From positions 32,001 to 96,000 of IMG/VR virus record IMGVR_UViG_2832410175_000003: 64,000 nucleotides of DNA, one strand, 5' to 3'. Below the pieces are notes generated by a model that saw only the letters and a list, made by a program, of their open reading frames with translations, made no database searches and was not told the DNA's origin. The translations under genes and the position numbers were made by a program. The stretch is from a virus (lineage: Duplodnaviria; Caudoviricetes). This document shows, one piece after another, positions 3,229 to 26,234 of the stretch (the first letter of the stretch is position 1; each line of letters begins with the position of its first letter).

Positions 3229-3252
3229 AATAGTTTCCTTTCTTATTTAATG

Positions 3253-3328
3253 TGGCACGAGTGCTTCGAGTCGAACGAAGATCATACGGTTTTGGAGACC
3301 GATAGCGTACCAATTAGCCCACACTCGC
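3253..3328 (-). tRNA. tRNA-Trp(CCA)
   Basis: Acceptor GCGAGTG/CACTCGT-G-CCA; anticodon loop CTCCAAA; T-loop TTCGACT. Confidence 0.85.
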
Positions 3329-3333
3329 ATGTA

Positions 3334-3426
3334 TGGCAGAGATGGTTGGATTCGAACCAACGAGCGAGAGCGTTACCTCCCTTGGCGGAGTCAAATTCCG
3401 CTGCCTTACCGCTTGGCCACACCTCT
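3334..3426 (-). tRNA. tRNA-Gln(UUG) with a long variable arm
   Basis: AGAGGTG/CATCTCT-G-CCA; Gln-type D-arm GCCAAGCGGTAAGGC; GCGGA-ATTTGAC-TCCGC; 23-nt variable region. Confidence 0.85.
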
Positions 3427-3430
3427 GTAT

Positions 3431-3455
3431 AAAAAGGGAGGCTCGAAAGCCTCCC
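3431..3455 (-). terminator. Intrinsic terminator after major tail gene
   Basis: GGGAGGC-TTTCGA-GCCTCCC-TTTTT on minus strand. Confidence 0.75.
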
Positions 3456-3470
3456 GATGAATCAGATAAC

Positions 3471-4274
3471 TTAGGCTACCAGATAGATGTTCCAGAGGGT
3501 CTTATCCTTGGCGCATACGTCGGTCAGAGTCTTAGCGCTGAACGCATGAACAGCCGGCTCGTCGCCGATATCCAGAGTGTAGTTGCCGTCGATCTTAGCC
3601 TTCGGAATCTCGAGAATTGCATGGTGCTTGATGTTCTCGTCGCACTTCTCAGCAACGGTGCAGTCAACCAGAATGCGAGCATTCTTCGAGAAGTTGTCTG
3701 CGATGTTGGAAATCTTGCGGCCCTCGGTGATCTCGTGGTCGTAAGCAACGTAGATCTCGGAACCCTTCTTCAGGTCATCAGCTGCGAAGGTGATGGTCTT
3801 CTCTGCAGCATTAACAGTGAAGGACTTGCCCTTAACCGGGGTGTCAGCAACAACAGTGTACTCAGCACCCTGCGTGCCATCGCTTGCAACCAGCCAGATG
3901 CGCTTAACCTCAGCACCCTCAACGCCTACCGGAACGTAGGACAGCTTAGCGGTAGTGTCGGTGTCCAGCTCAACGCGCTCGAAGTTCGGAACCTGAATCT
4001 TGTTGTCCTCAGATGCCTCTTCAATGTCGGTACCAGCCTGAGCAGCCAGCAGACCGGCTACGAGGAATGCGTTGTTCCAAGTAATCGTTGCAGCCTTGTT
4101 ACGGTCGAGGGATGCGAGCAGCATGCCCATCTTACCGGTAACATCGCTGGAATCAACGGTGTTCTCCAGAGAACCATCCTTAATCTGGTCGCACAGTGCG
4201 TACAGCTCACCGGTGGTGATGTCGTAGATAGACGCCAGATCGAAGGACTCCAGAAGGAAATTCTCCATATTCAT
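3471..4274 (-). CDS. Probable major tail (tube) protein
   Basis: Acidic beta-rich 267 aa, strong codon bias, followed by terminator, position after head-tail genes. Confidence 0.65.
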   Translation of the reverse strand: MNMENFLLESFDLASIYDITTGELYALCDQIKDGSLENTVDSSDVTGKMGMLLASLDRNKAATITWNNAFLVAGLLAAQAGTDIEEASEDNKIQVPNFERVELDTDTTAKLSYVPVGVEGAEVKRIWLVASDGTQGAEYTVVADTPVKGKSFTVNAAEKTITFAADDLKKGSEIYVAYDHEITEGRKISNIADNFSKNARILVDCTVAEKCDENIKHHAILEIPKAKIDGNYTLDIGDEPAVHAFSAKTLTDVCAKDKTLWNIYLVA

Positions 4275-17402: not shown

Positions 17403-20348
17403 TCAACTTGTCATTTTCTGCTTTTTCTCGATGTTCGCTCGGAGGATCTTCGCAATTTCCTGCATAGTGTGAGGTCGATTTCGTTCTTTGCGACGTTCTT
17501 CTTTTTCTGCTTCGTAGAGCTCTTCGAACACACGGCGTTTTGCCTCATACGCCTCAAATGTATAACCGTACAGCTTTACACTACCTGTCAGGCATTCGGT
17601 CGCGATCTGAATTGGCTCACGGCTCGTCTCGAGCATCTCGTAGAACGAAGAGTTCGCCGTCCCGAACAAAGAATCGAAGAGCAGCTTACTCACGTCTGAA
17701 TTTTCTTCTTTCTCCATGTCACGCAAGATAACATACATAGTAGCCGTATTGCATTTGTATTTTCCAACATATTCAATCAAATCTCGCTTAATTTCCTTGA
17801 TTTCATCCCAGTATGCTTCGTAACGTTCATTGGCATCATGATTATCTCCATCTTTAACAGGAGATGCCAGAGCTCCATAAATGGAAGCTATCTGTCTGCG
17901 AGCATCCCGGACAGCTTCGATGAACTTCCGTGCCAGCTCATACCGCGCTCCGGCCGTACCGACCATTACCGGGTCGATTACATAACTAAAGGGCTTGTTT
18001 GCTTTGTACGAGCCTCTCCAAAACCGGCAGCGGTTGATTGTGTGCTGAACGTAGTCCATCGTGGTTTTGTGAAACAGATAGGCTTTCTTTTCGCTGTCGT
18101 AGTATCCTTTACGGCGAGCCAGCGTCCCGAAGAAGTTCGGTTTAATCGCGCGACCCTTGTCGTCGCGGCGCTCATACTTAGCCTTCAGTCGCTTATACTC
18201 GTCGCGGTTGTTTACCACGAATTCTTTTTTTGCTTTGTCAATTTCCAGGCCACTCATGACATCCAGCATAGACGTGTCATAGTAAATCTCAGCCACATCC
18301 TCAAAAGCCGCGCCGCTGTTGAGCTTATCCCAAAGCAGACTGTTAAGCTCCTGAGAAAGGTTGATAATCTCGCCGATCATATTTTCGCTAGTTTTGATGT
18401 CGAGGTCTGTCTGCTGGGCACTGGTATAAGCACGCTTGGTTTTTTTAGACTCAACCAACGAAGTCGGAACTTTGAAGAGGGAGTAATTCTTCTCAGCCGC
18501 TTTAATCAGCATTGGATCGTCAGTCAACATACATGTGTCCGAGTCAAAATCAGCGCCTGACAATCTTTGTAAAATATTTTCGCCGATAGAATTCAAGCAT
18601 ACGATTTCTTCTGTTAAGTTCATATACCGGCGCACTTCAGGCACATACAGGTTGTCCGCCAGCAAGATATTCCCCTGACACACATGCGGACTGCGCGACC
18701 CCAACAGACGCTGACCTTCATCAAACCGCAGTGACATCACATGACCGGCCGGGATAGACGACTCGCCGTCGAACTGCCCGATAGACGCTTTCAGCATTTC
18801 CAGTGGATTGCCGACCAGAGTCGAATAATTACCGTTGACCAAAACATGTCCGCGACGGATGTTGTTCTGATACGCACGAATCAGCCCGTCTCGGAACTCG
18901 GCATACATCTGCGTCTGTGCGAATCTGTCGTTGATACCCAACAGACGGAAGATAATGTCGTTTCTGGTCAGCAGGGGAGATTTCATCTCACTAGCCGCCG
19001 ACTGCTGTTTCAGATGATAGCGCATAACCGCCGGATTGTTCTTCAGCTGTCGCATGTACTCGATGGACGGCTCGAGGAACTCATCCACCTCTTCCTGCGA
19101 CATCTGCAGAGTATTCAGCAATTGATAATGGGTAGACACCATACGTCCGTCAAAGAAGTGCGTCTTCTTCTCATGCTTTACCACACCGAACATAGGGTCG
19201 GTGCGCTTCAGCCACTCGCGCAGCCGGCCAAACTTCAAATACTTAATGCTGGACGGCGTAGTTATCAGCTTGATGTCCTCTATGGACTTCGCCAACGTGA
19301 ATCCGTTCAGCTGCTCGATTTTCGTAATCCCGTGGTCAGCAAGGAACTGTTGAATGTTCGCGTTGAAGCAGCAGGACTTGAAAAATCGGTTCCGGAGCAG
19401 CAGCATGCCGTACTGCTCGTACTTGGGGCCAAACAGGGACTTGTCCATCAAAGACTGACCGTCCCAGATGCTGTTCGTGATCTCGACGTGCTCGGGGCCA
19501 GACACCAGATGACCGTCTTCACGCACTCTGGTCGCGATAACGTCATCCGTAAACGTGCTCTCAAAATCATCGATTACCAGAAAGTTCTCCGGCCGCACCT
19601 CCAGCGTGTCCACAATAGAGCTTGCCGTCAGCGCGATATAGCTTTCCAGAGCAGCGAGGTCAATCGCCTGTCCCGGCTGCACTTTAATGCCGCACATCTC
19701 CCACTTGTGCATAGCAGGGTAGAGGCGTTCGTCGATGTACAAACATTTGCCGACACGAGAGGAACCGGCCGACCGCTTGTAACGAACATAATGGATGCCG
19801 TCACAATAGAAGCCTTTTTCGTAAAGCTCCTCGCGGATGTCAGCAACACTAACCTCAGTGGCAATGTTAATCTTCGCTTTGTACTGGCCGTCTTCCAGAT
19901 AAAAATACTTGCCGAGTACGGAAGGGGGTAGGGGGTTCTGGACATTCGTGTCACACTGGATGGCAATCAGCTCGCCGTCGACAACATACGCACAGTCATC
20001 CATATTCTCGGCAATCTCATCGTATCGCCAGCCGTTTTTGATGTACAGCGTCTTGCGGATACGATTGAATGCCTTGACGGCGTAATGCGCCGTCACGTTG
20101 ATAACACGGTGGGTGTATTCCTTACCGCCCAGCTCAAAAGAGAAATTCCTGCGGCGGTATACCCGCTCGTAGACATCTCTCAACTTGAGCAGGTCGAGCG
20201 AGTAATCCAGCGTGTTTCTGAATCGCTTCAGATTGAACCCGCCGTCCGAAGACCGGATGTTGTATCCGATCTCGGTTGGACGGTCATAGTGGTTTGCGAG
20301 GTAGACATCCTTGCCGTCCACACTTGGAATGTATACGGCATTCGTCAT
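17403..20348 (-). CDS. yonO: YonO-like single-subunit (RdRP-like double-psi barrel) DNA-dependent RNA polymerase
   Basis: 981 aa; KRSAGSSRVG, IWDGQSL, RSPH and catalytic SGADFDSD (DxDGD-type); upstream of late operon as in SPbeta. Confidence 0.88.
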   Translation of the reverse strand: MTNAVYIPSVDGKDVYLANHYDRPTEIGYNIRSSDGGFNLKRFRNTLDYSLDLLKLRDVYERVYRRRNFSFELGGKEYTHRVINVTAHYAVKAFNRIRKTLYIKNGWRYDEIAENMDDCAYVVDGELIAIQCDTNVQNPLPPSVLGKYFYLEDGQYKAKINIATEVSVADIREELYEKGFYCDGIHYVRYKRSAGSSRVGKCLYIDERLYPAMHKWEMCGIKVQPGQAIDLAALESYIALTASSIVDTLEVRPENFLVIDDFESTFTDDVIATRVREDGHLVSGPEHVEITNSIWDGQSLMDKSLFGPKYEQYGMLLLRNRFFKSCCFNANIQQFLADHGITKIEQLNGFTLAKSIEDIKLITTPSSIKYLKFGRLREWLKRTDPMFGVVKHEKKTHFFDGRMVSTHYQLLNTLQMSQEEVDEFLEPSIEYMRQLKNNPAVMRYHLKQQSAASEMKSPLLTRNDIIFRLLGINDRFAQTQMYAEFRDGLIRAYQNNIRRGHVLVNGNYSTLVGNPLEMLKASIGQFDGESSIPAGHVMSLRFDEGQRLLGSRSPHVCQGNILLADNLYVPEVRRYMNLTEEIVCLNSIGENILQRLSGADFDSDTCMLTDDPMLIKAAEKNYSLFKVPTSLVESKKTKRAYTSAQQTDLDIKTSENMIGEIINLSQELNSLLWDKLNSGAAFEDVAEIYYDTSMLDVMSGLEIDKAKKEFVVNNRDEYKRLKAKYERRDDKGRAIKPNFFGTLARRKGYYDSEKKAYLFHKTTMDYVQHTINRCRFWRGSYKANKPFSYVIDPVMVGTAGARYELARKFIEAVRDARRQIASIYGALASPVKDGDNHDANERYEAYWDEIKEIKRDLIEYVGKYKCNTATMYVILRDMEKEENSDVSKLLFDSLFGTANSSFYEMLETSREPIQIATECLTGSVKLYGYTFEAYEAKRRVFEELYEAEKEERRKERNRPHTMQEIAKILRANIEKKQKMTS

Positions 20349-20569
20349 TCAGTCACCTCGCCACTGTACTCGGCGCGGAGACGATCACGCATAGACAAGT
20401 GCGCGTCAGGGTCGCCCGCTTGGTAGTAACTCATTTCGAGCCAATATTCACTTGGCTCAAGATCTACCTATACAACTGCGTACCCGCAGACATCATCTGC
20501 TGTCATGTTGCAGGAGTTGTAGCGCGAGCAATACTCGCAGTCATCGTGGATGCAGTGGTTTTTCTTCAT
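20345..20569 (-). CDS. Cys-rich small protein with in-frame TAG at codon 34
   Basis: RBS AAAGGAG; MKKNHCIHDDCEYCSRYNSC...YAVV*VDLEPSEYWLEMSYYQ...GEVTE; final TGA overlaps RNAP ATG (ATGA). Confidence 0.6.
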
Positions 20570-20667
20570 TTGGTTTTCTCCTTTTATTGGTTTTCTGGCG
20601 GCAAAAGCGGCCGCCTCGCTCTCCTTATTTGTGTTTGCGTTCATAATATTTTGCACTTCCTTGAAAA

Positions 20668-21738
20668 TTAGTTTTCTGGTTTCTTGCGTCGTTTTTTATA
20701 TTTGCCACGCTTCCGCACCAGAAACAGAGGTTCAAGCTCGGCGGCTATCGCTTTGTTGCCGGTGTAAAATACGCGGGGGTTTAACATAATGCTTCCGACC
20801 GGCAAACCGTGGAACGGTTCTTTCAGCCGGGTCATAATCGTCTCCGTTCCTTTGCTGGTTCGGATGACTTGGTTGTAATAGAGGCTGGTCAACTCTCCGT
20901 AACCGCTTCGCTCATAGCCGCCAGCGGCACAAAGCCGAGCGGCGGTAAGAGGAGCCACCAGAAACGGATCATCCTGAAAGGGGTTCAGACAAAACACGTT
21001 GAAGTCCTTATGCAGATAAGGAAGCATCGGAAGCAGGTATTTCAGCCCCAGACTCATGGACTCAGTCCTATACATCTGTGCGATAGAGGAGAAATACATC
21101 CTCACATACCTGAAACCGCTTTGCTCCGCTTTCGTAGACTCGCGTCGTGTAATCTCACCCCTGCGAAACAGGTCTTGGTTGAACAACCACTCGCCGCGGT
21201 CATTCTGCCAGATGAAGTCTCTCTCTCGGAACGTCCTCAGCATCCCTTGAACAACTGGCGCGGTCAGTTGGAACACCTTTGACAAATAGTTCACGATGTC
21301 CGGCGGATACACATCAGCCGCAATCATCAGGTGCTTATCCGTAGTAGTCAGGAGCATCATCAGCTTTTGCGCCTCGGTTGGTGTGACGTCATAATAGCTC
21401 CCGCCTTCGAGCGGGACGCGTAGCCAGACGAAAGAGCCATAGGCCGGAGTGGCTGTTGAAACATCTCGCTGATAAGGTTTCGCGACTGGATTGGCTCCGA
21501 TATCTCTAATGCGTGCTTCAAAGAAGTCCGGGTCGAGATAACGGATATCCTTTGGCTCAAGTCTCACCTTGGGGTTGTAGTACCGCAGCACCGAGGTCGG
21601 AATATAAGCCCGCTGTCCATTGCCCTCCAGCGTGAAGGGAACAACGGCGGCGAACTCATGTAAATCAGCCCCGGCGTTGGCTATGTCACGCAGGGTCAGC
21701 TCGGCCAACTGCGTTTTTTCTGGCTGGGATTTACCCAT
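20668..21738 (-). CDS. Hypothetical DNA-binding protein (possibly RepL/wHTH-like)
   Basis: 356 aa; C-terminal MLNPRVFYTG and basic tail; family call weak. Confidence 0.6.
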   Translation of the reverse strand: MGKSQPEKTQLAELTLRDIANAGADLHEFAAVVPFTLEGNGQRAYIPTSVLRYYNPKVRLEPKDIRYLDPDFFEARIRDIGANPVAKPYQRDVSTATPAYGSFVWLRVPLEGGSYYDVTPTEAQKLMMLLTTTDKHLMIAADVYPPDIVNYLSKVFQLTAPVVQGMLRTFRERDFIWQNDRGEWLFNQDLFRRGEITRRESTKAEQSGFRYVRMYFSSIAQMYRTESMSLGLKYLLPMLPYLHKDFNVFCLNPFQDDPFLVAPLTAARLCAAGGYERSGYGELTSLYYNQVIRTSKGTETIMTRLKEPFHGLPVGSIMLNPRVFYTGNKAIAAELEPLFLVRKRGKYKKRRKKPEN

Positions 21739-21747
21739 GTTGCTTCC

Positions 21748-21904
21748 CGTCCTTCCAAATCGAACTCGCGTCCTTCCAAATCAAACTCGTCGTCCTTCCA
21801 AATCAAACTCGTCGTCCTTCCAAATCAAACCCTAATCATAAATACACTAATCATAAATACACTAATCATAAATACATAATCAAAAATACTTAATCATAAA
21901 TACA
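21748..21904. repeat. Iteron-like array: 4x ~22-bp CGTCCTTCCAAATCAAACTCGT then 5x 14-15-bp AT-rich TAATCATAAATACA(C)
   Basis: Direct tandem repeats seen in sequence. Confidence 0.9.
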
Positions 21905-21966
21905 TAGGCTGAGCTGGGCAGATTTTGAAAATGCCAGCCAGAGAAATGGAGAAATGGAATCACGCG

Positions 21967-22014
21967 GAATGAGGCTCACTCAGAATGAGGCTCACTCAGA
22001 ATGAGGCTTACTCA
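21967..22014. repeat. 3x 16-bp GAATGAGGCTCACTCA tandem repeat (internal TGAG-N5-CTCA dyad)
   Basis: Seen directly. Confidence 0.9.
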
Positions 22015-22023
22015 AGAGGAGCG

Positions 22024-22404
22024 TCACGCTTCGTCTGAACGATTGGTCGGTATATAAATGCGCGGGGTAGAGAACTGACATTGGCTGTGTCGGCGAATCA
22101 GATGTGCTTCTTCAAGTTCCTTAAATATCTGCAGCGCTTTCTTCTCTCCACAAGAGATGTCGTTCATAACATCTTTGAGAGAGTAATAGATGAATGGCTC
22201 GCCATCTTCGTCAATCCATTCTGGCCGGCTTTTTGATAGCTGCATTCGATAGAGCATGAGAGAATACAGGATCTTCCCAGCCGGAGAGACAGACTTGAGG
22301 TCAGGAGTTACGGGGATAGGGATGAAATCGAATCCGCTGCGGCCATCGTAACTGCGGAACTTCGGGTTATTCTATGTCGTGTGGATAGCTGGTCGTTTTG
22401 CCAT
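22024..22404 (-). CDS. Stand-alone RepA_N-domain protein with in-frame TAG at codon 11
   Basis: RBS GGAGGAGG, ATG 22404; MAKRPAIHTT*NNPK...FIPIP...KSVSPAGKILYSLMLYRMQLS...WIDEDGEPFIYY aligns with the RepA_N at 40863. Confidence 0.75.
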
Positions 22405-22452
22405 CTGGATACCTCCTCCGCGGGGTAATTGGATTTTTTTGCTTCTATTAAC

Positions 22453-22481
22453 TACTATACAAAAAAGGCGTTTTTGGGACG
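22453..22481 (-). promoter_or_regulatory. Phage promoter motif CGTCC-N16-GTATAGTA (copy 1)
   Basis: Five intergenic copies with identical spacing. Confidence 0.75.
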
Positions 22482-23484
22482 CGGAGTTGAAGAAAAAGAT
22501 GCATAAAGATTGAGAATTCTTTTGTGCATGTTGCTTAATGGAAAAATAGCTAGCTGAAGTAGGTCTTCTGGCTGGCTTAGACCTATGCAGCAATACTGAA
22601 ATAGATAAAGCCGACCATTAGACATTGGCCGGCTGTATTTATGACTGGATACGCCCCTGGGATAGAGTAGGTATGGATAGATGCGCCTGCTGTCGAAGAA
22701 CCATTTTTGTTCTGGCGGCAGAATTGAGCTGTAATCGCTTTTGACATATTGATGGGAAATTATACCACGAGAATACAAAAAGCCAGTACGGAGCATCCTG
22801 AGGCGAATACGGGGCATTGTAGGCAATATGTGGAAATACAGGAGGATAGAAGCAGTGCACAGGCGGCTTATAGAGGGTGTATGCGACGGGTCGCTCGGGG
22901 CAATTATTTAGTAGACTGTAAGCTATGGGAATACAAGCGAGTGTGGTGCTGTGTAGGACTACGGTAATAGTATTTCCTTCTGGCGGGAGATAAGGAAGCA
23001 ATGGGTTAGCTACAGGTTTGTTTAGCAGCTGTATGACAGGAGCTGTGGTAGAGCTTGCGTAGAGCTTCTGCAGAGCTCCAGTAGAGCTTCCTGGCTGGCT
23101 ATACTCGAGCTGACGGTTACAGCAGATTATAGGAATGCACCTTTTTCGAGTGTTCGGGAAAAGAGAGATGGCGAAAACTCGGGAACAGCGCACGAAATTG
23201 AGGAAACGGGGTTTGAAGAAGGGAAAAGGGAGGGGAAGGAGAGCGAAAGTTCGGGGAAAGAGGGGGAAAATATGGGGTAGAGTGAGATGAGGCAACTACC
23301 CTTCCTGAAACTGGTAAAATATCTGGAAAAGTGTAAAATATGCCCCCTATGATAAAAAAGAAGCATTTACACTGCTGAAAAGTACCGGAACGCTGTTTTA
23401 TAGTATACTCGAAAAGTCGATTTTCGGATCAGGCCCGTTCTGTGTATTTTTGTGCATTCTGTGCTTTTCTGTGCTTTTTCGCCC

Positions 23485-23525
23485 TGTGGGAAACCCTGTG
23501 CATAACTGCTTTTCCTTGTGGATAA
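23485..23525 (-). promoter_or_regulatory. DnaA-box cluster
   Basis: TTATCCACA (23517-25), TTATGCACA (23497-505), degenerate TTTCCCACA (23485-93), same orientation. Confidence 0.65.
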
Positions 23526-23795
23526 CTCCATACAATATAGTTTTCAATACTACGTCGCTTGGTGTACTCTGTCCGCATATGCAGGGCGTGACAGAGGGCG
23601 AAAATTTCAAAAAATCGGCGCGCAGCACGACAGAAAAAATCTTTTTTGCGCGCTTTTTCTGATTTTTTCAAAAAACTTTTCCGCGCTCAAAACCCCTGTT
23701 TTCGCCTGTTTTCGCTTGTTTTGCGAACCCCTACGCGCGCGTGCGTTTTCATTATCTTTGAAAAAATTGCCCCAAAAATTTTTTGAAAAAAAGGG

Positions 23796-23824
23796 TTGAC
23801 AAGGGGGTACACCCGCGCTATAAT
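23796..23824 (+). promoter_or_regulatory. Consensus sigmaA promoter with operator-like GGGGGTACACCC in spacer
   Basis: TTGACA-17 nt-TATAAT; A/T tracts upstream. Confidence 0.9.
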
Positions 23825-23829
23825 GGAGA

Positions 23830-24760
23830 CACTCCAAAAGGGGGGTACACCCCAAAGACACCCGCTGTGCGGTGTACGGTATCCGGTTCGAGAAGTCGAA
23901 CGTTTAACTGTGCTACGCCGTTCACGGTGAAAAGGGCGGTTAAACTCCGTTAGGTGTCCACCTTGTGAGAAGTCATAGCCCCCGCGGACAGCATTCCGCG
24001 GACAGGCGTCGGGTATAGCACCCCGAACGTGCACGCCGAAAGTCGGCGCGGTATCGGAACGCGTATAGCGTGCATTATGACGAGCGCGGACACGGTGTAA
24101 ACCGTGTAGCGCGGACAGTGCGAAAGACCTGTGAACCACAGCGTACACAGTACGGGCACACAGTGCCAAGCGGAACGCAGTTCGGAAACACCGCCCAAAG
24201 CACCTTGAAAACTTAACAGGCGTGAAAGCTACTTTTCAAGCGCGGAATGCACCGCGCGGATAAAGTAGCAATGCGAAAACCTTAACCCTCTTTTTATATG
24301 AAAAGTCGCGCGGGGACATTCCACCGTTGCAATGCTCATTTGCAAACCACGGCGGAAAACCCCTGTAAAGTGAATGTGCGGTGTAGCTATCATCTGGTAA
24401 AGCCGTAAAGAAAACCTGTCAAGCGCGGAAAAGCGGAAAAAATGGTTAAGTAGTAGCGTGGAAAAAGTAGCGTCTCTGGTAGTCCGTGCTATACCGGAAG
24501 TACGACAGGAAAGACTTAACGCCTGCCCCTGTTCCGCTCTGTGAAAACAGCTAAGTCCGGTTTGAAAAACACGCTTTTCCCGTGTATGGATGAAAGCCTA
24601 TGCACGAACCGCGTCCAAAGTGGCACTTGGGGCGGGGGCACTACGAAAGCGGGGTGTAAACCCCTTTAGGAATCGGCGGACGCAAAAACCTAAAAGCGCA
24701 ACAGTACGATATTTTTGTATCTTTTACAAGCGCACAAGCTACGACTTGTGCGCTTTCTAA
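23830..24760 (+). ncRNA. Candidate large structured RNA / giant leader
   Basis: No credible ORF; many hairpins; boxA-like GCACCTTGAAAACT at 24200; perfect 11-bp hairpin plus T run at 24728-24756. Confidence 0.5.
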
Positions 24761-24815
24761 AGGACACAAGTCCCGACACAGAAAACCATATACACAACAG
24801 AAAGAGGTATTTATT

Positions 24816-25838
24816 ATGACTAAGAACAACACTACTGCAAAGGCAACCTTTAGCGCAAAGACCCTAAAAGCTATGTCCCTGTCCACCCTCGAAACCCTGT
24901 ATAACAGCGCAGACACCAAGCCCGCGCAGAAAGAGAAGGTAAAGGCTGTCTACACTGATAAGGTAAAGGAAGCAAACACCAAGACCCGCGCCGACTTTAT
25001 CGCTGAGTCTGCAAAGGGCACGGCTGAGGAATTCCTGCGCAAGCAGTTTATCACGGCACAGCGCGTAAAGGACGACGATAACGGCCTGCGCACCGTAGAA
25101 GTAAACGTTCGTATTCCGTTCACCGCTATTGACGCCTTTATGAAGAAGGAAAAAATGCCGGAAAAGACCCTCGCACATGACGCGGAATACTTCGAGTATA
25201 TTCAACGGTTCGCTGACAATATCGCCCTGTATCACGGCGATATGCTGTCCGATGAAAACCGCCCTGCAAAGGTGTCGCACCTGCGTTACGGCGTGAATAA
25301 GAAGGGCGAAGCGCGTATCATCGACTTCACCGCGCATGATGACAAGGCATTGTATTCTCAGCTTGACACAATCTTCATGATGATTCTTGGCAAGGATACC
25401 AAGATTCACCCGACGAACGCAAGCCTTCACTTCATCAAGACCTCTGCGGGCAATGCCAAGCGCAATGTGAACGGCGTCATGAAGATTGATCGAGATAAGT
25501 CTATCCTTGGCCTGATCCAGAACGTTATCGCAATGCGCATTGAAGAAAAGTCCTTTGCAGTAGACACCGGCGTAAAGGAAAAGAAGGTATCCGCGCCCAA
25601 GCAGACCAAGGCCGAGAAGAAAGCTGAGGACGCAATCGCCAAGAAGGAAACCGGCACGCCTAACGCGCTTTCTGGCAAGGTTGAAGAAGGCAAGAAGGAA
25701 TCCGTAGCAACCGAGAAGTCCGTGGCCTGCGCACGCAAGAATTCCGTTATCACTGCCAAGCCGGACGCCAAGACCGCACGCAAGAACCGTGCAATCGTAG
25801 AAAAGGCACGCAAGACCACCGCCAAGACCGCCAAGTAA
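24816..25838 (+). CDS. Lys/Ala-rich early protein of unknown function
   Basis: RBS AGAGG; strong codon bias; histone-H1-like C-tail. Confidence 0.85.
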   Translation: MTKNNTTAKATFSAKTLKAMSLSTLETLYNSADTKPAQKEKVKAVYTDKVKEANTKTRADFIAESAKGTAEEFLRKQFITAQRVKDDDNGLRTVEVNVRIPFTAIDAFMKKEKMPEKTLAHDAEYFEYIQRFADNIALYHGDMLSDENRPAKVSHLRYGVNKKGEARIIDFTAHDDKALYSQLDTIFMMILGKDTKIHPTNASLHFIKTSAGNAKRNVNGVMKIDRDKSILGLIQNVIAMRIEEKSFAVDTGVKEKKVSAPKQTKAEKKAEDAIAKKETGTPNALSGKVEEGKKESVATEKSVACARKNSVITAKPDAKTARKNRAIVEKARKTTAKTAK

Positions 25839-26057: not shown

Positions 26058-26234
26058 GTGAGTAGTGAAGCATACAAGAAAGCAAACTATGAACGTGTAG
26101 TTTATCAAGTTCCAAAAGGAAACCGTGAGGTTTTGCAAAGAGAAGCAAACCTTCGCGGAAAATCCGTAAACGCGCTCATAACCGAAGCGTTAGAGGCTCA
26201 ATACGGTCTCGATCTCAGCAAGAAAACAAAATAA
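26058..26234 (+). CDS. Arc/ribbon-helix-helix DNA-binding protein (below ORF-track cutoff)
   Basis: MSSEAYKKANYERVVYQVPKGNREVLQREANLRGKSVNALITEAL; own promoter TTGAAA-17-TATAAT (25997-26025). Confidence 0.75.
   Translation: MSSEAYKKANYERVVYQVPKGNREVLQREANLRGKSVNALITEALEAQYGLDLSKKTK

Follow-up and report, generated by a model that had tools for sequence, protein, structure and literature searches.

Antitermination through boxA and Nus factors is textbook material for the rRNA operons of Escherichia coli and for phages lambda and T7, and in the Firmicutes it has only recently been approached biochemically, in a 2026 paper in which NusB binding to the Bacillus subtilis rrn box, consensus AUGAUCUUUGAAA, was shown by nuclear magnetic resonance (PMC13753749). 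In lambda, boxA sits in the early leaders past the early promoters, within nutL and nutR, and with N it gives processive antitermination of a long operon. In T7, according to PMC3709561, which cites Savalia et al. 2010, a boxA lies behind the early promoters A1-A3 used by the host RNA polymerase (RNAP), and its mutations affect infection. Phages also carry large ornate RNAs such as GOLLD and ROOL, which belong to a 0.6-0.9 kb class with many helices and GNRA loops (PMC12286853). For phages of Clostridia, no description of boxA antitermination was found in the literature searched. The subject here is a structured untranslated RNA of about 950 nt, the type A leader, encoded in a 64,000-nt window (the whole stretch of DNA that was analysed, bases 32001-96000 of the 175-kb IMG/VR virus record IMGVR_UViG_2832410175_000003, classed as a provirus and 93% complete). 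Its sequence suggests, with a probability that we would put at roughly 0.55, that it is the long untranslated 5' part of an early transcript, in a form that mimics a host rRNA operon and would recruit the host's Nus factors.

The leader occupies the last third of a 3.1-kb stretch without a credible gene that separates two gene blocks (Table 1). Genes to the left of 21738 lie on the - strand and include those for a 981-amino-acid (aa) YonO-like RNAP related to RNA-dependent RNA polymerases (RdRP), an exonuclease and the large terminase; those from 24816 rightwards lie on the + strand and comprise small open reading frames (ORFs), Bro-N/anti-repressor genes and tRNAs. The perfect sigmaA promoter read by the initial annotation, TTGACA-17-TATAAT, was confirmed at 12/12 positions as the only such match within 21500-25200, and the same scan found no credible or strong promoter between the fold and the gene at 24816. 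Relatives keep the promoter, with a -10 hexamer of TATAAT or TACTAT. The A/T-rich tract in front of it (TTTTTTGAAAAAAAGGG-TTGACA) resembles the tracts of rrn promoters in Lachnospirales genomes, e.g., ctttgaaaaaagtg-TTGACA in genome G019 and 'ctttgaaaaaagtgTTGACA' in the rrn promoter region of L115, with comparable tracts in L103-L105 and L114; this likeness is the weaker evidence, because A/T-rich tracts are common to strong promoters generally.

The boxA-like sequence that had been noticed at 24200 proved to be near-identical to the boxes in Lachnospirales rrn leaders. The genomes used for this comparison (Lachnospirales/Clostridia) were reached through distant relatives of the phage RNAP and may not represent the phage's host. 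A search for rrn boxA by pattern alone, made in three genomes before any 16S gene had been located, produced matches at places unrelated to rRNA; in two Clostridia genomes (G001 and G002) the 16S genes were located first and their leaders then read. In the three leaders so read (two of G001, one of G002), a box GAACCTTGATAA(C/T)TAAACAGT lies 20-33 nt past a promoter-like site; it precedes 16S by 146-163 nt in G001 and by 81 nt in G002, where only one 16S gene is present. G001 has six copies of the box, five of them upstream of five of its six 16S matches and the sixth apart from any listed 16S match. In G046 the box (ACCTTGAAAACTGAACAG) precedes a 16S gene by 85 nt, and in G019 (ACCTTGAAAACTAAACAG) it precedes the 16S start, AGAGTTTGATCCTGG, by 128 nt. 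The phage box agrees with the rrn-leader boxes of G001, G002, G019 and G046 at 14/14 specified positions of the 18-nt pattern ACCTTGANAANTNAACAG, and with those of G046 and G019 at 17/18 positions over the full length. Exact matches to the pattern were present in 4/61 sampled genomes of the same order, most of the others probably being drafts that lack rRNA operons.

Within the phage the pattern has a single occurrence, in the window as in the 175-kb record as a whole, to which a tolerance of two mismatches adds no other, and a reversed-pattern control gave 0 matches. The promoter lies 378 nt upstream of the box on the same strand, and the box would thus be in sense orientation in the presumed nascent RNA. 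All 13 of 13 type A copies keep it, with a variant in L008 (CUUUGAAAAC) that shifts towards the Bacillus form. No match to NusG-N (PF02357, which includes NusG and LoaP), NusB (PF01029) or Phage_antitermQ (PF06530) was found in the 175-kb record, a search that small diverse N-like proteins could escape; with no phage homologue of NusG/LoaP, NusB or Q, host factors would therefore be used.

These features can be read as one sequence of events. The host's sigmaA RNAP would start at the consensus promoter, with its rrn-like A/T-rich upstream tract, at a position that we infer to lie near 23830; boxA, about 375 nt into the RNA, would recruit the host's NusB-S10 together with NusA and NusG; and the polymerase thus modified would withstand Rho across ~1 kb of untranslated, ribosome-free RNA, read past the weak hairpin at 24728-24760 and go on to transcribe the first early gene (24816) with the operon that follows. 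Transcription of the region, the binding of Nus factors and read-through are all steps that we infer. With the rRNA operon leaders of E. coli, B. subtilis and Lachnospirales the locus shares the strong host promoter with an A/T-rich tract, the near-identical boxA and a long structured untranslated RNA; it differs from them in that the RNA downstream is not rRNA but runs into protein genes, that there is a single copy of boxA, and that no boxC was recognised. It resembles T7 (PMC3709561) in having a lytic-cycle early transcript of the host RNAP with a host rrn-type boxA, and in a later use of the phage's own single-subunit RNAP, here the YonO/RdRP-like 981-aa protein; in T7 the first gene follows boxA with no structured RNA of ~1 kb in between, and the host belongs to another phylum. 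With lambda nut the locus has in common a boxA in the early leader past an early promoter; unlike lambda nut, it has no identified boxB/N pair, the three small hairpins at 24129-24167 being no more than a formal analogue of boxB, and the phage element is about 15 times larger.

Folding and comparative analyses show that the RNA around boxA has a genuine, selected secondary structure. As RNA, 23831-24765 has a minimum free energy of -352.8 kcal/mol (z = -7.0 against dinucleotide shuffles), and the complementary (-) strand gave z = -3.7. The stems listed in the initial annotation are all present: GTTTAAC/GTTAAAC at 23902/23939, CCGCGGA/TCCGCGG at 23982-24001, CGCCGA/TCGGCG at 24034-24048, ACACGGT/ACCGTGT at 24090-24107, GCTACTTT/AAAGTAGC at 24228-24269 and the closing 11-bp AAGCGCACAAG/CTTGTGCGCTT at 24728-24755. 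Searches with the 340-aa protein encoded next to the leader and with a conserved 23-mer brought in homologues from contigs of IMG/VR, from assemblies of ENA and Logan and from contigs of human-gut metagenomes; together with the window copy they gave an alignment of 13 distinct sequences from human-gut phage contigs that are 86-99% identical. The RNAalifold structure on these copies has 279 pairs, with 98.0% of cells forming standard pairs. Compensatory changes, the check that had been proposed for the fold, affected 16 pairs (60 cells), compared with 1-4 pairs (1-10 cells) when the 3' partners were slid by 1-3 columns, and the covariation score was reached by 0/500 shuffles.

The helices supported in this way are all local (23972-77/24076-81, 24008-13/24022-28, 24029-36/24068-75, 24090-96/24101-07, 24142-46/24150-54 and the domain 24312-24363). 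In that central domain CCGU/ACGG is replaced by CUUG/CAAG and UUCC/GGAA by GCAU/GUGC, and the loop at 24097-24100, GUAA here, is GAGA, GCGA or GAAA in relatives, i.e., always GNRA. Two peripheral domains exist in alternative forms that are closed by equivalent helices. The most divergent copies differ from one another by 6-11% in the RNA, compared with 25-34% at the four-fold degenerate sites of the adjacent gene, and in these comparisons unpaired leader positions vary more than paired ones. Given the GNRA loops, the compensatory pairs and the exchangeable peripheral domains, a tertiary structure is probable as well.

The absence of a gene from the ~990 nt before 24816, which had been claimed at the outset, was borne out. 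Between the promoter and that ATG there is no + strand ORF of at least 60 aa and no conserved ORF, and in relatives small ORFs are interrupted by indels of 56, 23 and 1 nt. TAA, TAG and TGA stops are all present in five of the six frames of the leader region; the sixth, on the minus strand, has no TGA yet contains eight other stops (TAA, TAG), so that no frame is open under any stop-codon reassignment, and a recoded gene was rejected. Neither does the leader belong to a described RNA family. Rfam 15, whose families include GOLLD, ROOL, HEARO, OLE, raiA, group I/II introns, riboswitches, T-box and phage pRNA, had no match to it; at gathering thresholds the 64-kb window gave tRNAs only, and at E<=10 the region 21500-25500 gave three chance-level eukaryotic matches, none of them inside 23826-24779 on the + strand. 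The locus had no blastn match (distant setting) among 50,697 phage records, and an nhmmer profile of the type A leader found, among 110 related loci, near-identical copies only, plus the 3' module of the leader in L020 and L023.

A comparison of sister phages showed how readily the leader is replaced. In six of them (L014, L016, L017, L020, L023 and L067) the polymerase gene is 96-99% identical to that of the window, and they are collinear with it from 17403 to 23826, at the -10/transcription start, after which the sequence is different until ~25950. The exchanged unit is the whole cassette of leader RNA plus first early gene, with its left junction exactly at the -10/transcription start. The type B cassette found in these phages has a consensus promoter and a ~640-nt ORF-free leader, followed by a different first gene of 243 aa. 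Its leader folds with z = -8.45 and shows compensatory changes of its own relative to an 80%-identical copy in L073; it looks like another structured RNA, also undescribed, that occupies this position in the genome. The L016 copy (3235-3884, - strand) has two repeats of a module, CCGCUUUUCCCUCGAUAGAGGGCGGGCGGG, as well as several GGGACAG motifs. In L020 and L023 the type B leader closes with the 3' module of type A; the type B leaders of L016, L014, L017 and L067 are without it and run straight into a ribosome-binding site. Still other leaders precede the genes for distant homologues (41-43% identical) of the 340-aa protein, in L106 (type C; a 781-nt stretch of promoter region and leader with a fold z of -5.8) and in L107 (a ~690-nt leader that folds no better than shuffles, z = -1.1).

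Apart from that shared 3' module in L020 and L023, nhmmer detected no homology among the type A, B, C and L107 leaders. What the leader types have in common is the promoter, a repeated spacer motif at about +11 to +22 (types A, B and C) and a boxA-like box in sense orientation: GAAGTTTGACAAGTGAACAG and CACCTTGACAAGTACACA in type B, CACCTTGGAAAAGTAAACAG in L073, CACCTTGACAAGTTAACAC in type C and TACCTTGCCAATTAAATAG in L107. In the loci scanned, two-mismatch matches to the box arise by chance about once per 150-300 kb, and one box per leader, always in sense, is therefore unlikely to be due to chance. A hairpin lies directly before the box in the type B and C leaders and in the rrn leader of G002, and is less clear in type A. 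The two copies of the spacer motif, ~38 bp apart, co-vary as a pair in types A, B and C (GGGGGTACACCC, GGGACGCCCCAA, GGGACAGCACCCCG and TGCACCC; L002, L016 and L106 compared), and the second copy in the type A leader can also fold as a 5' hairpin, GGGG-UACA-CCCC. The two copies might serve a phage-specific repressor as operators (heteroimmunity), or they might be where a DNA-binding elongation factor is loaded, as at the lambda Q-binding element.

The closing 11-bp hairpin reported earlier is a perfect helix; the T run said to follow it amounts to TTTCT within a tail (TTTCTAAA) of 4 T in 8, which fell below the criterion of the terminator scan. The module, whose loop is replaced and stem kept in L008, L092 and L096, could either act weakly as an intrinsic terminator or be a stem for processing of the RNase III type. 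In L008 an additional 95-aa ORF is inserted directly after it, before the 340-aa gene, and the module therefore marks the boundary of an RNA unit. The initial annotation had left the choice between a new large non-coding RNA and a processive antitermination leader for the long early operon. The large selected structure, the lack of an Rfam match and the rrn-type boxA all stood, and the choice leans to the leader because no credible promoter lies between the fold and the first gene, the U tract of the closing hairpin is poor and some sister leaders end in nothing that resembles a terminator; a free-standing RNA like GOLLD or ROOL is the less probable of the two.

Several observations weigh against the rRNA-operon mimic. 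Its boxA comes ~375 nt from the start, later than the 30-80 nt of rrn leaders, and the single-strandedness of the box is modestly supported (mean unpaired probability 0.50-0.60, and 0.73 for the core, compared with 0.37-0.38 for the whole RNA). An antitermination signal needs some 20-60 nt and not 950 nt of ornate selected structure, so that a leader function leaves most of the object unexplained, as it does the wholesale swapping of leaders between sister phages. The kinship of the Lachnospirales genomes with the true host is uncertain, and the closeness of the homologues also counts, since the long-range helices are invariant among them and so lack covariation support, which leaves those helices unproven. 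Beyond forming the leader, the fold might stabilise the message, keep Rho away or bind a factor of the phage or of the host.

The alternative that survives best is still an unlikely one. In it the RNA would be free-standing, of a new class similar in kind to GOLLD and ROOL, and would act in trans; it would be synthesised in bulk early under rRNA-type antitermination, released by termination or RNase III-type cleavage at 24715-24769, and might, for example, sequester a host defence or RNA-binding factor as its decoy or sponge, or provide a scaffold. Its size, GNRA loops, domain architecture and purifying selection fit such a role, as do the rapid turnover of whole leaders between near-identical phages, as in an arms race, and the cell's own use of boxA for long non-coding RNAs, i.e., rRNA. 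The discrete 3' module, with its ~22-bp stem common to otherwise unrelated leaders, and the gene inserted behind it in L008 suggest a unit with an end of its own; the U tract, however, is weak, and the type B leaders that lack the module and run directly into a ribosome-binding site also count against this alternative. On the + strand GCGGA occurs 11 times (~1.3 expected) and CGCGGA seven times (0.3 expected), a possible sign of a binding site in many copies. The bare triplet GGA shows no such excess (20 occurrences, ~18-20 expected), and a CsrA-type GGA sponge is therefore unlikely. The search of the 175-kb record for antisense targets of the leader RNA gave none above chance, with 11-13-mers only. 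The locus differs from GOLLD and ROOL in having no covariance-model match, in its position as the 5' leader of an operon and not beside tRNA genes, and in its very narrow distribution with replacement of the whole cassette between sister phages.

An rRNA-operon mimic also accounts better for the locus than would a sensory attenuator, which we consider improbable. In that case a very large leader of riboswitch or T-box type would let a ligand, protein or tRNA set termination at 24728-24755, and the order of promoter, structured leader, hairpin and gene is indeed the classic layout of attenuation in Firmicutes, with a hairpin stem that is strictly conserved and a loop that is free to change. The same weak U tract counts against termination, no Rfam riboswitch, T-box or leader family matched even at E<=10, no conserved alternative (antiterminator) pairing to the 5' arm of the hairpin was seen, and unlike sister leaders precede homologous or different genes, which is unsuited to a conserved ligand pocket. 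Least probable of all is an element acting as DNA (an operator, roadblock, partition or packaging-site array near the origin-like repeats at 21748-22023), since the enriched and oriented CGCGGA motif, the spacer/+11 to +22 repeat that co-varies among relatives like an operator pair, and the iterons with a RepA_N fragment 1.8 kb upstream are outweighed by compensatory changes, GNRA-for-GNRA exchange and a strand asymmetry of folding that are signatures of RNA, and since promoter operators fit an RNA equally well and explain only the first 30 nt.

Table 1. Features of the type A leader locus (positions in the window)
Feature	Position	Strand	Evidence or remark
UP-element-like A/T-rich tract AAAAATTTTTTGAAAAAAAGGG, directly 5' of the -35 hexamer	23774..23795	+	sequence
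sigmaA/sigma70-type promoter TTGACA-17-TATAAT	23796..23824	+	12/12
Promoter-spacer motif GGGGGTACACCC, copy 1	23803..23814	+	direct repeat D6
Structured untranslated RNA (type A leader), ~950 nt	~23826..24779	+	fold z, covariation, 13 homologues
Spacer motif, copy 2, ~+11 to +22 of the transcript	23841..23852	+	direct repeat D6
Variable peripheral domain 1, ~100 nt	23857..23958	+	other copies have a ~45-nt hairpin domain with an equivalent closing helix
Helix 24029-24036/24068-24075 around two small hairpins	24029..24075	+	three compensatory pairs (helix 12)
7-bp hairpin with GNRA tetraloop	24090..24107	+	one stem pair CG to UA on both sides (helix 15)
Three abutting 13-nt hairpins, each with a 5-bp stem and 3-nt loop	24129..24167	+	helices 18-20; compensatory CG to UA in helix 19
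boxA-like element GCACCTTGAAAACTTAACAGG, core ACCTTGAAAACTTAACAG at 24202-24219	24200..24220	+	identity with rrn-leader boxes
Long 16-bp hairpin GCUACUUU...AAAGUAGC around GCGCGG/CCGCGC	24228..24269	+	helix 27
Central hairpin domain	24312..24363	+	two helices fully re-paired in variants (helices 29-30)
Variable peripheral domain 2, two alternative forms a 23-nt indel apart	24489..24563	+	alignment
Hairpin GGGGU-GUAA-ACCCC	24651..24664	+	loop 24656-24659 is GCAA in 3/13 copies (L008, L011, L093), GNRA kept
3' boundary module: 11-bp GC-rich hairpin 24728-24755, extendable to ~22 bp, then UUUCU	24715..24769	+	helix 44
Shine-Dalgarno AAGAGG and ATG of the first early gene	24802..24818	+	sequence
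First early gene, 340 aa	24816..25838	+	always accompanies type A RNA

The protein encoded next to the leader gave no clue to its function. The 340-aa product of the first early gene belongs to no Pfam or PHROG family, has no usable look-alike in the ESM Atlas and no tblastn match in the 50,697 phage records; HMMER searches of 1.8 billion representatives found 13 relatives only, all unnamed, and its AlphaFold2 model is poor (predicted local distance difference test score, pLDDT, of 47). The second gene of the early operon (26058-26234, + strand) encodes a 58-aa protein (phrog_13890) with a ribbon-helix-helix-like sequence, a candidate regulator that possibly acts on the promoter repeats. The 981-aa protein (17403-20348, - strand) that heads the late block has a weak match to eukaryotic-type RdRP (PF05183), matches phrog_8308 and is a YonO-like single-subunit RNAP; relatives at 41-99% identity were found on 66 viral contigs and 12 contigs of Clostridia genomes, the closest in a named genome being that of a Christensenella metagenome-assembled genome (53% identity), with others in Lachnospiraceae and Clostridia.

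Further upstream, 21748-22023 holds three adjoining families of tandem repeats (4 x 22 nt, 4 x 15 nt AT-rich and 4 x 16 nt), next to a 77-aa RepA_N fragment at 22024-22257 (PF06970, E = 6e-10), and the cumulative GC skew turns there; judged by its sequence, the arrangement looks like a replication origin. The next ~1.4 kb (22420-23795) is also without a credible ORF, contains a G/purine-rich tract at ~23160-23290, and is conserved at 88-91% even in sister phages that have a different leader. A tRNA gene at 47086-47161, in which ARAGORN reads a four-base anticodon 'tcta' in an 8-nt loop, could encode an amber (CUA) or quadruplet suppressor and may relate to the in-frame TAG of the RepA_N-like ORF 22404->22024.

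A bolder proposal, and in our estimate a doubtful one, is that uncultured gut Clostridia phages with a YonO-like polymerase open infection with an ornate RNA of ~0.6-0.95 kb, of a kind new to the literature and with fast turnover, made under the disguise of an rRNA operon and active itself once released at the shared ~22-bp stem. If that were true, at least three mutually unrelated types of RNA would occupy the same site, for example as decoys or scaffolds in an arms race between phage and host. As an rRNA-operon-like early leader, the locus offers a clean and testable case for boxA antitermination in a phage of this kind, with one promoter, one Lachnospirales-like boxA, ~1 kb of untranslated RNA and the early genes behind it. 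It also brings to light a large selected RNA fold that is absent from Rfam and that sister phages have exchanged, right at the transcription start, for other folds.

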